Below, one piece after another: positions 1,259-6,055 of a DNA stretch of 6,055 nt. The DNA comes from Escherichia coli (GTDB taxonomy: Bacteria > Pseudomonadota > Gammaproteobacteria > Enterobacterales > Enterobacteriaceae): NCBI RefSeq assembly GCF_048403405.1, contig NZ_CP183132.1; one strand, 5' to 3'. The position numbers and the translations under genes were made by a program. The notes beneath the pieces were generated by a model. That model made no database searches and had not been told where the DNA came from. It saw only the letters and a list, made by a program, of their open reading frames with translations. The number at the start of each line of letters is the position of its first letter. Positions within the stretch are counted from its first letter, which is position 1.

Positions 1259-1615
1259 ATGGGGGTAATGATACCGATGAAACGCGAGAGGATGCTCACG
1301 ATACGGGTTACTGATGATGAACATGCCCGGTTACTGGAACGCTGTGAGGGTAAACAACTGGCGGTATGGATGCGGCGGGTCTGCCTGGGTGAGCCGGTTG
1401 CCCGTTCCGGGAAGCTGCCGACACTGGCACCGCCGTTACTGCGTCAGCTGGCCGCCATCGGGAATAACCTTAACCAGACAGCGAGGAAGGTGAACAGCGG
1501 GCAGTGGTCTTCCGGTGACCGGGTTCAGGTGGTGGCCGCACTGATGGCCATCGGGGATGAGCTGCGCCGGCTGCGTCTGGCGGTCAGGGAACAGGGGGCG
1601 CGGGATGATAGTTAA
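1259..1615 (+). CDS. mbeC: MbeC/MobC-type relaxosome accessory protein
   Basis: The translation (...MLTIRVTDDEHARLLERCEGKQLAVWMRRVCLGEPVARSGKLPTLAPPLLRQLAAIGNNLNQTARKVNSGQW...) matches ColE1-family MbeC; the truncated homologous stretch follows rop in pBR322. Strong SD (aaggggggg, about 8 nt) precedes ATG 1259; alternative in-frame starts at 1277 and 1292 would give 112 or 107 aa. The stop overlaps the mbeA start. Confidence 0.75.
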   Translation: MGVMIPMKRERMLTIRVTDDEHARLLERCEGKQLAVWMRRVCLGEPVARSGKLPTLAPPLLRQLAAIGNNLNQTARKVNSGQWSSGDRVQVVAALMAIGDELRRLRLAVREQGARDDS

Positions 1616-3170
1616 GTTTCATGCCAGGGGAAAAGGTGGTGGCAGTGGTCCGGTTGATTACCTGCTGGGAAGGGAGCGTAACCGGGAAGGGGCAACGGTG
1701 CTTCAGGGGAATCCGGAAGAGGTCCGGGAACTCATCGATGCCACGCCATTTGCGAAGAAATACACGTCAGGTGTTCTGTCGTTCGCGGAGAAGGAGCTGC
1801 CGCCTGGAGGGCGTGAAAAAGTGATGGCGAGCTTTGAGCGTGTACTGATGCCCGGTCTCGAGAAAAATCAGTACAGCATCCTGTGGGTGGAGCACCAGGA
1901 CAAGGGACGGCTTGAGCTGAATTTTGTCATTCCGAACATGGAGCTACAGACCGGAAAACGCCTCCAGCCGTACTACGACCGGGCAGACAGGCCGAGAATT
2001 GATGCCTGGCAGACGCTGGTGAATCACCATTACGGTCTGCATGACCCCAACGCCCCGGAGAACCGCCGGACGCTGACCCTTCCTGATAACCTGCCGGAAA
2101 CGAAACAGGCGCTTGCTGAGGGCGTCACACGCGGGATAGACGCGCTTTACCATGCCGGAGAGATAAAAGGCCGTCAGGATGTGATTCAGGCGCTCACAGA
2201 GGCGGGGCTTGAAGTGGTCAGGGTGACGCGAAGCAGTATCAGCATTGCAGACCCGAACGGCGGGAGGAATATCAGACTGAAAGGAGCGTTTTATGAGCAA
2301 TCTTTTACAGACGGGCGCGGAGTTCGAGAAAAAGCTGAAAGAGAGAGCCGAATCTACAGAGAAAATGCTGAACGACGAGTTCAGGAAGCTCGAAGAATCT
2401 GTAAACAGGGAACTGACCTCAAACGAATCTTTAATCAGGAACGCTATCAACGACCATACAACAGCCCTGAAAGAACTGCTGGAGAGGTATCAGAAAACGA
2501 CCGTCGATACGATGGACGCGCACTGGAAAACCGTACTGAAAATGAGCGTGAAACGCTGGCTGTGGCTGATTATCGTCTCAGTACTGATGTTTGCCACGAC
2601 CGGGAGTCTGCTGTGGTACCAGGGCATGAAGATAAACGCGAATATGAATATTCTCCGCGAGCAGAAAGAGAGTCTGGAGAAGCTGAACGCGAAGACATGG
2701 GGCGTGCGTTATCACGAGGACAGCAACGGACGTTTTCTGGTGTTGCCGAAGGGGATGAAAGCCGAAACGAACTGGACGAAGGACAACGGCAAACTGAACG
2801 CAGTGAGACTGGTGCAGGAGTGACAGAGCATGACGGAGCTGGAAAGACATTTGCTGAACGCATTAGAGCAACTGCAACAGGACTATATGCAGCGGCTGAA
2901 CGAATGGGAGAACGCCTTCGTGGAATTGCAGAAAATGTTTTCGCTTACGCAACGGGACAACGCGATGCTGAACGGGCGAGTCATGCAGTTGAGTCAGCAG
3001 GTGCAGCACTTGAGCGAGCGGACAGAACGCTTGAGCCAGTTATACAGCGAGAACAGGAGATAAGGGATGAACGGCTGATGCAGGAACGCGAACATGAGTT
3101 ATCTCTGGAGCGGGAGCGTCAGCCGGAAATCCAGGAGCGGACACTGGATGGCCCTTCGCTGGGATGGTGA
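1605..3170 (+). CDS. mbeA: MbeA relaxase (MOB-HEN family), 521 aa
   Basis: N-terminus MIVKFHARGKGGGSGPVDYLLG... contains the catalytic Tyr19 and the HEN motif (H97, E104, N106 in ...WVEHQDKGRLELNFVIPN...) described for ColE1 MbeA. SD agggggcg lies 5-6 nt upstream of ATG 1605. The longer 537-aa ORF from 1557 is an upstream extension running through the end of mbeC. Confidence 0.9.
   Translation: MIVKFHARGKGGGSGPVDYLLGRERNREGATVLQGNPEEVRELIDATPFAKKYTSGVLSFAEKELPPGGREKVMASFERVLMPGLEKNQYSILWVEHQDKGRLELNFVIPNMELQTGKRLQPYYDRADRPRIDAWQTLVNHHYGLHDPNAPENRRTLTLPDNLPETKQALAEGVTRGIDALYHAGEIKGRQDVIQALTEAGLEVVRVTRSSISIADPNGGRNIRLKGAFYEQSFTDGRGVREKAERESRIYRENAERRVQEARRICKQGTDLKRIFNQERYQRPYNSPERTAGEVSENDRRYDGRALENRTENERETLAVADYRLSTDVCHDRESAVVPGHEDKREYEYSPRAERESGEAEREDMGRALSRGQQRTFSGVAEGDESRNELDEGQRQTERSETGAGVTEHDGAGKTFAERIRATATGLYAAAERMGERLRGIAENVFAYATGQRDAERASHAVESAGAALERADRTLEPVIQREQEIRDERLMQEREHELSLERERQPEIQERTLDGPSLGW
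2293..2823 (+). CDS. mbeB: MbeB mobilization protein (176 aa), nested in a different frame inside mbeA
   Basis: ORF with a good SD (aaggag, 6 nt upstream of ATG 2293) and one hydrophobic segment (WLWLIIVSVLMFATTGSLLWY). The nested position inside mbeA matches the ColE1 mbe operon. Confidence 0.8.
   Translation: MSNLLQTGAEFEKKLKERAESTEKMLNDEFRKLEESVNRELTSNESLIRNAINDHTTALKELLERYQKTTVDTMDAHWKTVLKMSVKRWLWLIIVSVLMFATTGSLLWYQGMKINANMNILREQKESLEKLNAKTWGVRYHEDSNGRFLVLPKGMKAETNWTKDNGKLNAVRLVQE
2830..3063 (+). CDS. mbeD: MbeD mobilization/entry-exclusion protein (77 aa), nested inside the 3' part of mbeA
   Basis: ORF immediately after mbeB, with SD aggag about 9 nt upstream of ATG 2830; its position matches mbeD of the ColE1 family. 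Product inferred from gene order and overlap, not from recalled protein sequence. Confidence 0.65.
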   Translation: MTELERHLLNALEQLQQDYMQRLNEWENAFVELQKMFSLTQRDNAMLNGRVMQLSQQVQHLSERTERLSQLYSENRR

Positions 3171-3346: not shown

Positions 3347-3375
3347 GGTGCGTACAATGCGACGTTATGGTAAAT
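3347..3375 (+). other. XerC/XerD recombination core: GGTGCGTACAA (XerC arm) - TGCGACG (central region) - TTATGGTAAAT (XerD arm)
   Basis: Seen in sequence. Both 11-bp arms are identical to those I recall for ColE1 cer; the central region is different and 7 bp long here. Confidence 0.75.
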
Positions 3376-3465
3376 GGAGCGGATTTTCAGGAAGGAGTGA
3401 TACTAACAACTCGAACACTGTGCAAATAATGATTTTTTTAAAATATCGGTAACGATAATAAATTA

Positions 3466-3503
3466 TTTCGTTTTACGCCGGTAATAAATATAATGTAGTT
3501 TCA
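3466..3503 (+). promoter_or_regulatory. Candidate sigma70 promoter for the cargo operon (-10 TATAAT at 3489-3494; weak -35; AT-rich upstream)
   Basis: A perfect TATAAT hexamer lies about 50 nt upstream of ATG 3544 in an AT-rich tract (taataaattatttcgttttacgccggtaataaatataatg). No good -35 at 17-bp spacing; a second TATATA at 3505-3510 is also possible. Confidence 0.3.
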
Positions 3504-3543
3504 GTATATAAAAAAATATATGAGGTGTCTTGTGGGAGCTTTC

Positions 3544-4596
3544 ATGAATCTTCAACAACGTATAAATAAACTACCACAATTATCATCCAGTTTTTCATTT
3601 GGAAAAGATATTGATAATATTCATTCATTTATCTTTAACGAAACTTCTAAAGATAAAATTGAAGATTTACTAAGAAAATGGGTGTCAGGCAATCAGCCCT
3701 GTGTATTTGGTAAATTGGCAAGCAAGAAAATTAAAGGGCTTGATTTCCATTTATCTATTGTAAATAGCCCCCAACTATATAATGATGATGGTCATTTGTT
3801 TGATTTTTTGCGTAATGAAAGAGTTCGTTTTAAAGAACGCGCAAGAAGAGGAGAGGTCAGTGCGCATCTCATTTATTTTATTCATCCACAACTTGCCTTT
3901 GCTCGTCCATCAGAAGAGTTAGTGGACATACAAAAATATATTTGTTCGCTGCATATGCCAGAGTGCTATCCAATAAAAGAGGATGTTATTTATACTGAAA
4001 GCGTACCATTTCAGGATAAAGATGGGCTAAAAATATATAAGGCTGGTGTTAATGTTTTTTACTCTTCTGCTCATAGAACAAGAAATCATGATAGAAGAAT
4101 ACCAGGGGGAATACTTATTTCTGTAAATGCCCCGGGGCATTTTATGAGGCTGGCGATAGAAAAAGGTTTCTATAAAGATCAAGAACAAGCGTTAGCGGAT
4201 ATTCGTAACATGACTATTCAGTCTGTTGGTAAGGGTGGGTATTCACATCCGGAAGGGATTTCTACAACATGGCATTCAGAATCTAATTTGGATCGTTTTG
4301 GATGCCCAGTGCACACCGGTAATAGTTCTTATTACAGCGGTTTTTATCATACTGATGTATTAATTCCAGGAGAATTAACTAAGGATGAAAGATTGCTCCA
4401 TGAAATAGAAAATAGTGATCCAATGATCTTCAACTGGAATGTATTGTTTTATGTTTCATTAGAAGAGTTTCCTATAGATGATCCTTATTATGGAGAGTTT
4501 ATTGGTATTCCTGTAGATGATGCATCTATGTTTTTTAACTCCTTTCAACCAAGGAAATTTGAAAACAAACCCCTTTATGAGAAAGAGGATGATTAA
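3544..4596 (+). CDS. Hypothetical soluble protein, 350 aa, family not recognised (first gene of the AT-rich cargo operon)
   Basis: Long ORF (track 3520-4596) in AT-rich DNA. ATG 3544 is preferred over ATG 3520 because of the SD gggag 5 nt upstream. No signal peptide or hydrophobic helices evident. Conserved-looking segments include NAPGHFMRLAIEKGFY and DRFGCPVHTGNSSYYSGFYHTDVLIPGE. Confidence 0.75.
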   Translation: MNLQQRINKLPQLSSSFSFGKDIDNIHSFIFNETSKDKIEDLLRKWVSGNQPCVFGKLASKKIKGLDFHLSIVNSPQLYNDDGHLFDFLRNERVRFKERARRGEVSAHLIYFIHPQLAFARPSEELVDIQKYICSLHMPECYPIKEDVIYTESVPFQDKDGLKIYKAGVNVFYSSAHRTRNHDRRIPGGILISVNAPGHFMRLAIEKGFYKDQEQALADIRNMTIQSVGKGGYSHPEGISTTWHSESNLDRFGCPVHTGNSSYYSGFYHTDVLIPGELTKDERLLHEIENSDPMIFNWNVLFYVSLEEFPIDDPYYGEFIGIPVDDASMFFNSFQPRKFENKPLYEKEDD

Positions 4597-4597
4597 T

Positions 4598-5464
4598 ATG
4601 ATTAAAGGAATGCTTTTTGCTTTTTTAGCAGCGTTCTCATGGGGGGCAGCTATCGTAATGAGCAAAAAAGGAGTTGAAGAACTAGATGCCGGAGGGGTGT
4701 TTTTCTGGCAGATTTGTAGTGCAGTAATACTATCTTGGATAGTTCTTTTTATAAAAAGAAAAAAACTCCCATTAAACTCAAAAGCGATACTTGCTTATGC
4801 GACAGGCGTTTTTGAACCATTCTTAGCGTATACTTTTACACTCTACGGACTTTATTTTATTTCAGCAGGAAGCGCATCAATTATTTTTTCACTTGAATCA
4901 GTGTTTATATTGGTGTTGTCTGTTCTTATTTGCTCAGTTAAAATTAATTCCCCGCAATATTTTATATTGTTCCTTATAGGTGCAATTGTTGGCAGTATTT
5001 TGGTAGCCTTGCCAGACATCAGTAATGGATCGAATAATATTGTTGGATATTGTCTTGTTGTTGCCGGTGTGTTATCGGCAGCATTTTATGTTGTTATATC
5101 GTCTCGCCTTATTAAATCGTTTGAGCCTATCACATTATTGAGCGGACAGTTGACATTCTCCCTTATACTGTCATCGCTCTTTATTTTTATATCTAAATCA
5201 TCAATTTATCTTCCGTTGGAATCCGTGATTATTGTTTTTTCATCTGGAATATTACAATATTTTTTAGCTTTTTGTTTTTACTTGAACTCCTTGCGTTGGC
5301 TCCCAGTTCATTTGGCAGGGATAATGTTGTACTTTATTCCGCTAGTTGCATTATTTTTGTCATGGTTGTTTTTGGATGAACAATTCACATTCTTACAGGG
5401 GGTAGGATTTATTGTAACTGTGCTAAGTGTATATTTTCTTAACAGAAAATACTCAGAGGAGTAA
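4598..5464 (+). CDS. DMT-superfamily (EamA-like) integral membrane transporter, 288 aa, about 10 predicted TM helices
   Basis: About ten hydrophobic segments of 18-23 residues in a 5+5 arrangement, with an N-terminal LFAFLAAFSWGAAIVMSKKG typical of EamA-domain proteins. Start ATG 4598 has SD aagagga 8 nt upstream and lies 2 nt after the stop of the upstream gene; the track ORF from 4517 is an N-terminal over-extension. Confidence 0.8.
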   Translation: MIKGMLFAFLAAFSWGAAIVMSKKGVEELDAGGVFFWQICSAVILSWIVLFIKRKKLPLNSKAILAYATGVFEPFLAYTFTLYGLYFISAGSASIIFSLESVFILVLSVLICSVKINSPQYFILFLIGAIVGSILVALPDISNGSNNIVGYCLVVAGVLSAAFYVVISSRLIKSFEPITLLSGQLTFSLILSSLFIFISKSSIYLPLESVIIVFSSGILQYFLAFCFYLNSLRWLPVHLAGIMLYFIPLVALFLSWLFLDEQFTFLQGVGFIVTVLSVYFLNRKYSEE

Positions 5465-5633
5465 CATTCTGTTCAGGATTGCCCCCCGGCCTCCATCGAT
5501 ACCGTGCCAAATGCACGTAAAAAACGGGAGCGTTTCTGGTGTCGGAATGTAACCAAGGGGGTCAGAGGCGCGCTAAAACGCTCTCAGGGGAGTCAAATAG
5601 AGACGTTTGTAACAAAAAGATCAAAGGATCCTC

Positions 5634-5662
5634 TTGAGATCCTTTTTTTCTGCGCGTAATCT
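5634..5662 (+). promoter_or_regulatory. RNA II promoter, second copy of 3-31 in the terminal overlap
   Basis: Identical sequence at offset 5631. This copy shows the true context on the circle: the promoter lies about 170 bp downstream of the cargo transporter gene. Confidence 0.6.
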
Positions 5663-5668
5663 GCTGCC

Positions 5669-5775
5669 TGTAAACGAAAAAACCGCCTTGCAGGGCGGTT
5701 TGATCGAAGGTTAAGTCAGCTTGCAGACTGCTTAACCAGGTAACTGTCTTATGCGAGACGAGTCACCAAAATTGT
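5669..5775 (-). ncRNA. RNAI: RNA I, second copy of 38-144 in the terminal overlap
   Basis: Identical sequence at offset 5631. Confidence 0.7.
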
Positions 5776-6055
5776 TCTTCTAGTGTAGCCGCACTCCGGC
5801 AGCCACTTCAAGTACTCTCTAAATATCTCGCACATGACTTTTACCAATGGCTGCTGCCAGTGGCGCTTTGTGGTGTCTTTTCCGGGTTGGACCCAAGAGA
5901 ACAGTTACCGGAGAAGGCGCAGCAGTCGGGCTGAACGGGGGGTTCCTGCATACAGCCCAGCCCGGAGCGAACTGCCTAAGTCGCCCCGAGATACCAGAAG
6001 ACGTGAGCTATGAGAAAGCGCCACGTGTCCCGTAAGGGAGAAAGGCGGAAAAGGT
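5670..6055 (+). ncRNA. RNAII: RNA II, 5' part, second copy of 39-424 truncated by the window end
   Basis: Identical sequence at offset 5631. Confidence 0.65.

Follow-up and report, generated by a model that had tools for sequence, protein, structure and literature searches.

In AglA, which belongs to the YqcI/YcgG family (PF08892), Cys44 is the axial haem ligand and R166 binds a haem propionate, and the loop L2 gates the substrate and sets specificity. Another YqcI/YcgG enzyme, ChmN, hydroxylates L-arginine with a generic ferredoxin/reductase, partners a cupin enzyme and loses its haem in the C47A variant; enzymes of this family bind haem when produced in Escherichia coli (PMC10849742). GrbE is a further YqcI/YcgG homologue, its companion GrbD being SznF-like, and Aravind's group has noted YqcI/YcgG proteins and efflux transporters in operons with cupins and methionyl-tRNA synthetase (MetRS) paralogues. 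Here we analysed a 6055-base stretch of E. coli DNA (the window; contig NZ_CP183132.1 of assembly GCF_048403405.1) and, within it, the gene at 3544..4596 on the + strand, which encodes 350 amino acids (aa) plus stop. RefSeq has the same coding sequence (CDS), as WP_001053268.1, 'hypothetical protein', confirming the open reading frame (ORF) reported in a preliminary description made from the letters alone. We propose, with a probability of roughly one half, that this protein belongs to a divergent sister family of YqcI/YcgG with the AglA fold, i.e. that it is a haem-thiolate N-oxygenase acting on an amino-acid-like substrate, the product of which is exported. Because an enzyme fold with the key Cys motif is paired almost constantly with an exporter, the plasmid that carries the gene probably makes and secretes a modified amino acid.

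Fold, conserved residues and likeness to AglA

The AlphaFold model of the target protein (predicted local distance difference test, pLDDT, 93.2; predicted template modelling score, pTM, 0.92) shows a globular α/β protein, in line with the soluble appearance noted earlier. It matches the AglA-type α/β sandwich, in which three helices pack against one side of the central sheet and two against its opposite side, and the order of elements (α1-α2-β1-α3-β2-α4-β3-β4-α5) is common to the model, AglA and the published prediction for the YqcI/YcgG family. Nitric oxide synthase (NOS) haem domains directly follow AglA in the Foldseek list for the model; the target protein does not have the NOS haem-domain fold.

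Conservation is concentrated in three blocks, all on the + strand. The signature Q51-P52-C53-x-F55-G56 lies in residues 49-58 (GNQPCVFGKL; 3688..3717), where C53, the predicted axial haem ligand (codon 3700-3702), occupies the N-terminus of helix 54-60 in the model. Residues 176-199 (AHRTRNHDRRIPGGILISVNAPGH; 4069..4140) form the β3-β4 loop and strand β4; they include D183, R185 and P187, all invariant, and the nearly invariant N195, and are, by their conservation and the hhalign comparison below, candidates for positioning the haem propionates or the substrate. Residues 227-271 (4222..4356) contain further invariant or near-invariant columns (SVGKGG...W243-H244, C254-P255 and Y264...Y268-H269-T270-D271) and probably represent an enlarged counterpart of the AglA loop L2, lining the distal or substrate pocket. 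Across both subfamilies of the superfamily, C53, P52, W46, D183, R185, P187, D271 and Y303 are invariant in 104/104 sequences, P255 is found in 97/104 and C254, present in the target protein, in about 60-76%; H182, H269 and R184 are not invariant at this depth.

The three motifs quoted in the preliminary description are indeed present, at residues 49-58, 195-210 and 250-277, and these motifs, whose Cys, His and Asp residues it suggested might be catalytic or metal-binding, do belong to the conserved core, with H269 and D271 (nearly) invariant, whereas H257 is not conserved and C254 occurs in ~76% of close relatives. Its residue numbers were about 30 too high ('C283, H286, H299, D301' are C254, H257, H269 and D271, counting the M at 3544 as 1), and the mutagenesis list that it proposed, besides this misnumbering, omitted C53, the sole invariant cysteine and the predicted haem ligand.

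For the comparison at residue level we used the supplementary alignment of Aravind 2010 (PMC2922099), from which 13 YqcI/YcgG sequences (DcsA among them) were drawn, and fixed the AglA numbering through an alignment of DcsA with the PDB entry, AglA Cys44 (in YPC44YFG) corresponding to DcsA FPC35 and R163/R166 lying in the RRSR motif. The hhalign match of the superfamily alignment to this set (E 9.8e-5, probability 58%) is centred on QPC53xFG over FPCxFG and scores 36.8, against 16.6 ± 3.9 (maximum 27.7) for block-shuffled decoys and 14-23 for reversed ones; the profile signal is real, if modest. With the close clade alone the match (E 4.6e-3 over 130 columns) sets GINvF172Y over GEPxF (AglA F152), AHrTrNHDRR over PAHxxRkSR, with R180/R184 falling on AglA R163/R166, and ILISVN195 over the AglA strand with Q177/R179, N195 falling on Q177. 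R184 and the invariant R185 align with the RxSR motif that includes R166. Searching 255 family members with the YqcI/YcgG hidden Markov model (HMM) gave dozens of sub-threshold matches in one shared register over the Cys motif. A deeper YqcI/YcgG profile (40 sequences added, mainly haloarchaeal) did not improve the hhalign score (36.8 for alignment A3 against the deeper profile, 39.8 for A3 against A4), and global hhalign scored 2.5, as expected with proteins of unequal length. Greedy extension was colinear over nearly the whole YqcI/YcgG profile, placing, with low confidence, GNGG...sW over the LGxYG...EW loop (AglA L2) and C254-P255 over the CPF motif. The extended alignment beyond β3 is suggestive; since the greedy local extensions for alignments A1 and A3 disagree downstream of β3, we took only the Cys-motif block as reliable.

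The earlier reader recognised no family in the protein, and this also holds for sequence methods. Pfam gave no match to the target protein even at E ≤ 10 and no significant match for any of 88 close relatives (PF08892 matching 0/88), NCBIfam was empty, PADLOC (anti-phage defence) and PHROGs (phage proteins) gave no match at E ≤ 1, and phmmer and two family-profile searches of the PDB were likewise empty, porphobilinogen synthase and Fab heavy chains (E 0.3-1) being discarded as chance-level noise. Nor did any search return a profile or fold match to the nucleotidyltransferase, HEPN, Fic, PLD, ATP-grasp, amidinotransferase or carbamoyltransferase families, so that their exclusion by eye stands. 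Faint PF08892 matches (best 0.031) were obtained for 2 of 63 distant relatives, and a word-index search with the superfamily profile for bridging PF08892-annotated proteins returned family members only. The label 'DUF3396 domain-containing' on two relatives in the AlphaFold Database (AFDB) was dropped because the Pfam scan of the 88 close-clade members, several actinomycete-like ones included, did not reproduce it.

Full-length homologues of the target protein number 96, with identities as low as 30% and from several phyla, and a search of 1.8 billion representatives gave 412 clusters of the family at 50% identity (E ≤ 1e-3), with members in Proteobacteria, Actinomycetes, Acidobacteria and Planctomycetes and protein lengths of 345-420 aa. 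These numbers, the 28 invariant columns of the close-clade alignment and the confident AlphaFold model place the target ORF far beyond a chance ORF. The family was previously without annotation, being 'hypothetical' in every annotation pipeline, and literature searches found no paper on it or on the plasmid cargo.

Fusion, partner transporter and gene neighbourhoods

A natural fusion unites the target family with PF08892 in one polypeptide. In protein P0099 (622 aa), from three soil-metagenome assemblies, residues 10-361 belong to the target family (E 2.6e-129) and residues 418-619 make up a complete PF08892 domain (Pfam i-E 4.4e-47), with both Cys motifs kept; a phmmer search of the PDB with its C-terminal domain did not reach AglA. 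Two domains fused in this way usually act in one pathway. The P0099 operon (locus L009, 2530-9385; also L010 and L011) encodes a MatE efflux pump, an OprB porin, a MOSC protein and a 347-aa protein with a weak C-terminal likeness to dimethylargininase (DDAH, guanidino-modifying), and a Rieske-oxygenase-like gene lies upstream; the operon could make a doubly N-oxygenated guanidine compound. The 347-aa neighbour was also tried as a paralogue of the target family and rejected (hhalign probability 0.06).

In the window, the target gene is followed at 4598..5464 (+ strand) by a gene for a 288-aa transporter of the drug/metabolite transporter (DMT)/EamA family (WP_001335763.1, 'DMT family transporter' in RefSeq), the predicted product exporter. 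It matches TIGR00950, a carboxylate/amino acid/amine transporter model, at 6.6e-16 and a local EamA HMM at 7e-124, and has ~10 transmembrane (TM) helices in ~290 aa. Its ATG begins 1 nt after the stop of the target gene (TAATATG), with AGAGGA upstream, so that the two genes are translationally coupled. The target gene is thus the first of a two-gene cargo operon, as the preliminary description had it, and the co-occurrence with DMT transporters that it proposed to check proved real and strong. We scanned one genome for each of 100,044 species and found 48 loci of the family, which is rare and patchy. In the clade of the window protein an EamA gene is immediately adjacent in 20 of 21 proteobacterial loci, the lone exception lying at a contig end, and the orthologous neighbour transporters all carry Pfam EamA (PF00892). 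Close enterobacterial relatives (75% identity) have the same overlapping gene pair, beside toxin-antitoxin modules. A MarR-type regulator is present as well in thirteen of the proteobacterial loci, and in several of these MarR and EamA are divergently arranged. These regulators (L030, 5256-5768, and 12 other proteobacterial loci) have an unusual Cys-rich C-terminal tail, CRMCDEDTCVPEHCP, possibly a metal- or redox-sensing extension.

In several actinomycetes EamA lies inside a longer operon, the Actinoplanes order being DUF3291 - family - cupin - MetRS paralogue - flavin adenine dinucleotide (FAD) amine oxidase - DUF4178 - SIS - EamA - cupin. Actinomycete loci contain a MetRS paralogue in eight cases, a cupin in seven of these eight and a diaminopimelate (DAP)/ornithine-decarboxylase-like enzyme in six or seven, and a methyltransferase is also among the operon neighbours. 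Bacterial hydrazine synthetases combine a cupin with a MetRS-like domain and condense an amino acid with an N-hydroxylated amine. This amine normally comes from a flavin lysine N6-hydroxylase, and the cassette is completed by an FAD oxidoreductase (PMC12376268). As the annotation of the Actinoplanes locus shows no flavin N-hydroxylase, and the other loci have no recurrent one, the target family may, by analogy, fill the N-hydroxylase slot of such hydrazine-type cassettes. In four further lineages (L065, 3777-4355; L066, 4191-4769; L005, 9159-9767, which equals L028; and L051) the family gene is flanked by a distinctive GNAT acetyltransferase of a GNAT-like subfamily with the motif GANGGCWCMWWR, 33-36% identical between lineages, which replaces or supplements the transporter. 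A hydroxylase and an acyltransferase together make a hydroxamate-forming pair.

Loci of a more distant subfamily share a conserved neighbour in convergent orientation, 415-527 aa long and matched by neither Pfam nor NCBIfam (L016, 8176-9780; L055, 1898-3145; L057; L060; and L062), and the L016 locus has mobile-element surroundings (integrase, DUF932 and type I restriction enzyme). Several recurrent neighbour clusters in high-GC loci were dropped as antisense or out-of-frame shadow ORFs.

The plasmid and its cargo island

The window is a circular ColE1-type mobilisable plasmid of 5631 bp whose sequence runs past its own start: bases 1-424 are repeated at 5632-6055, so the ORFs at 203-404 reappear at 5834-6035 and RNAI is present twice on the minus strand (43-143 and 5674-5774). 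The backbone (GC content 0.52-0.61) carries Rop, MobC, MbeB/MbeD-like genes and a relaxase ORF. This ORF (537 aa, 1557-3170) has the MbeB-like and MbeD-like genes (2293-2823 and 2830-3063) nested within it in another frame, as is typical of ColE1 mobilisation regions; the PLSDB gene table of the reference plasmid contains no relaxase CDS entry.

The cargo is a low-GC island in the composition profile (3400..5500, no strand assigned; GC 0.29-0.40) with two + strand genes, placed between a cer-like Xer core site and the replication origin. The site, GGTGCGTACAA-TGCGACG-TTATGGTAAAT at 3347..3375 (+ strand), is an exact pattern match with 0 expected by chance, and we take it to be a cer-like XerC/XerD core from its resemblance to that of ColE1 cer. 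The left edge of the low-GC cargo abuts this core, and the cargo takes the position where ColE1 has its colicin operon, which hints that the module was acquired beside the Xer site.

An alternative in-frame ATG at 3520 would add eight residues to the target protein; 3544 is the likely start, given the Shine-Dalgarno-like GGGAG at 3534..3538 (+ strand, read directly), 5 nt before this ATG, and homologues that align from residue 1-3. The AT-rich region upstream (3403..3494, + strand) holds candidate sigma-70 promoters, namely CTAACA-16-AATAAT at 3403-3430, from a consensus scan whose count was not above that of shuffled sequences, and, read directly, a perfect TATAAT (3489-3494) whose -35 is poor.

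The cargo is 100% identical to that of pJJ1886_3 (E. coli sequence type 131, ST131, strain JJ1886) and of many 5.6-kb plasmids of E. coli and Salmonella. The same 2.2-kb cargo was observed at 100% identity on plasmids of 4.6 to 9.3 kb (hits H10, H13, H20, H21 and H23); given these differing plasmid sizes, several variants of the backbone carry the module. The literature mentions a relative of 11.8 kb that has a Cfr10I restriction-modification system; our searches of it found no functional description of the plasmid, of the accessions or of a haem N-hydroxylase/EamA pairing. The target gene is carried by 118 of 5,426 complete E. coli genomes, always on a plasmid, at ≥ 99% identity and annotated as hypothetical, and by 145 PLSDB plasmids, chiefly of E. 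coli and Salmonella. Copies identical at 100% also occur on tiny contigs labelled Streptococcus parasanguinis, Rhizobium wenxiniae and Pseudomonas sp. A-RE-19 (L017, L018, L022 and L052), and UniProt/AFDB entries of the protein bear the names of a slime mould (Tieghemostelium lacteum), of Bacteroides and of Faecalibacterium; the copies in odd taxa are almost certainly E. coli plasmid contamination or mis-binning.

Proposed mechanism, alternatives and known systems

In the mechanism that we propose, Cys53, in the QPCxFG motif at the N-terminus of helix α2, would ligate a b-type haem as thiolate, the haem sitting between the helical face and the central sheet with its propionates held by the basic loop H182-D183-R184-R185 between β3 and β4. 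As the plasmid encodes no redox partner, electrons would come from a housekeeping ferredoxin/flavodoxin and reductase. The enzyme would activate oxygen in P450 style and hydroxylate a free amino acid, or a close derivative of one, on a nitrogen; the likeliest target would be the guanidino or amino group in the side chain of Arg, Lys or Orn. This choice of a basic amino acid is our best guess from the genomic contexts (neighbours resembling DDAH and decarboxylases, partners that use hydroxylamines) and from the exporter, which is of the amino-acid/amine type. The enlarged C-terminal region (residues ~228-350, with the invariant Y264, Y268-H269-T270-D271 and Y303) would replace AglA L2 and set substrate specificity; because L2 is the specificity loop in AglA, the substrate need not be arginine. 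The coupled 10-TM DMT/EamA exporter would release the product, also protecting the producer, and the two genes would form a self-contained 'make and export' module in the ColE1 colicin-operon slot.

Several observations weigh against this proposal. No sequence method is significant against PF08892 or AglA in Pfam and PDB profile searches, and the close clade alone gives an hhalign probability of 7.6% and a score (26.2) inside the decoy range. The putative equivalence of Cys53 and Cys44 comes from a weak profile alignment and topology. The AglA propionate ligands K196 and R200 have no obvious conserved counterparts, the target protein is ~110 residues longer than YqcI/YcgG enzymes, and its extra invariant polar residues (D183, H269, D271, Y264, Y268 and Y303) would equally suit a non-haem metal or Cys-His-Asp site. 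There is no redox partner gene nearby, the distant subfamily (~25% identity) has neither transporter nor biosynthetic neighbours, and the hydrazine-cassette analogy is one of domain composition, not of demonstrated Spb40 orthology. Some of these points could be read as an AglA fold put to other chemistry, with Cys53 as a nucleophile, or with a non-haem metal or Cys-His-Asp site including H182, D183, H269 and D271, hydrolysing, transferring or isomerising a small amino-acid-like molecule moved by the DMT transporter. The marginal similarity to the haem family, the lack of conserved K196/R200 contacts and invariant Cys, His and Asp residues in excess of those conserved in YqcI/YcgG would all fit, and the YqcI/YcgG Cys was itself once proposed as a thioester anchor, before haem was discovered. 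We nevertheless think this unlikely: in the one structurally similar family, the equivalent Cys serves as haem thiolate in all members so far characterised, the Pro-Cys-x-Phe-Gly context at a helix N-terminus is the same, H182, H269 and R184 vary across the superfamily, and the operon contexts demand an N-oxygenase, not a hydrolase.

Two further alternatives concern the role of the protein. The gene pair might be a resistance or detoxification module, its enzyme oxidising or otherwise inactivating a toxic amino-acid analogue or xenobiotic, the DMT pump expelling this toxin or its product and, on chromosomes, a MarR repressor sensing the toxin. Haem-oxygenase chemistry would suit this role too, the difference being one of physiology alone. 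Divergent MarR-EamA pairs among the 13 regulator-bearing loci are typical of inducible efflux, the gene is widespread in clinical and food-animal E. coli and Salmonella, and small ColE1-type plasmids often bear resistance genes (PMC5841774). Against this stand the biosynthetic-type operons of actinomycetes (MetRS paralogue, cupin, decarboxylase and methyltransferase), the fusion to a biosynthetic-type YqcI/YcgG domain, which favours synthesis, the plasmid copy without a regulator and the lack of any match to resistance-gene models, and we hold this role to be distinctly improbable. A non-catalytic haem protein, i.e. a gas or redox sensor or a haem carrier modulating the adjacent transporter, would agree with the fold and Cys motif, and tight translational coupling to a membrane protein could mean a physical complex. 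It seems very improbable indeed, as the known relatives are all enzymes, the predicted distal region, with its many invariant polar residues, resembles a substrate pocket, and many actinomycete and distant loci have the gene but no transporter at all; the gene is also found in enzyme-rich operons.

We therefore prefer the haem-thiolate N-oxygenase with an exported product. A bolder form of this proposal, which is speculative and which we think unlikely to hold as a whole, makes the cargo a minimal small-molecule factory: a new class of haem-thiolate N-oxygenase would turn a common amino acid into an N-hydroxylated (or further N-oxidised) one for secretion by the DMT pump, the colicin slot would hold a diffusible antimetabolite or host-modulating metabolite, and the family would also be a hitherto unrecognised non-flavin source of hydroxylamines for actinomycete hydrazine/N-N-bond natural-product pathways. 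A candidate conversion is that of L-arginine to N-hydroxy-arginine, which is an arginase inhibitor, an intermediate of NOS and an antimetabolite. Should the N-oxygenase assignment be true, it would give a function to a family called hypothetical throughout its 412 clusters, extend the newly defined fold of non-P450 haem-thiolate N-oxygenases to a second family, whose substrate pocket is larger and different, and provide a candidate non-flavin N-hydroxylase beside hydrazine-synthetase-type genes, of use in natural-product genome mining and biocatalysis. A module for making and exporting a metabolite, not a colicin or resistance gene, would then be the cargo of a small mobilisable plasmid that is common among clinical E. 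coli (ST131 JJ1886) and poultry Salmonella; ~2% of E. coli sequenced so far have the module, the reference strain of pandemic ST131 among them, and it would raise questions on competition in the gut and urinary tract and on host arginine and nitric oxide metabolism.

Of the known systems to which the locus can be compared, the NOS oxygenase domain and cytochrome P450 resemble it in a chemical sense, through the predicted Cys-thiolate haem chemistry on an amino-acid nitrogen. Flavin N-hydroxylases of hydrazine and hydroxamate pathways (Spb38/AzsL/ThzL; the IucD/PvdA class) occupy the same operon position, either beside a cupin, a MetRS-like gene of hydrazine-synthetase type and an FAD oxidase or beside an N-acyltransferase, and by analogy would share the predicted product class (an N-hydroxy amino acid). 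Their fold and cofactor are unrelated: the target family lacks a Rossmann/FAD-NADPH domain and any Pfam match, and the analogy comes from context alone. The partner resembles the EamA/RhtA/YddG-type DMT amino-acid exporters in matching TIGR00950 and, weakly, YddG, but it falls below the curated cut-offs of every named exporter model and has no sequence match among solved structures. With YqcI/YcgG (PF08892, COG3403 'FPC/CPF motif'; AglA, DcsA, ChmN, GntA, Mhr24, AmbT and GrbE) the target family shares the fold, the Pro-Cys-x-Phe-Gly context, the genomic company and, by the profile alignment, a putatively equivalent basic β3-β4 loop. It differs in having Gln where YqcI/YcgG proteins have Phe or Tyr before Pro-Cys, in its length (345-420 aa, against a single domain of ~210-280 aa, with PF08892 proteins measuring 240-280 aa), in an extra N-terminal helical segment (residues 1-35), in a ~120-residue C-terminal region with invariant Y..YHTD and Y303 motifs, and in its characteristic tight EamA pairing, and it is not detected by the PF08892 model. 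Because the profile test fails, size and C-terminal architecture differ, Gln replaces the aromatic residue and two of the three propionate ligands are unmatched, we do not file the protein under PF08892, yet we expect it to work like a YqcI/YcgG enzyme.

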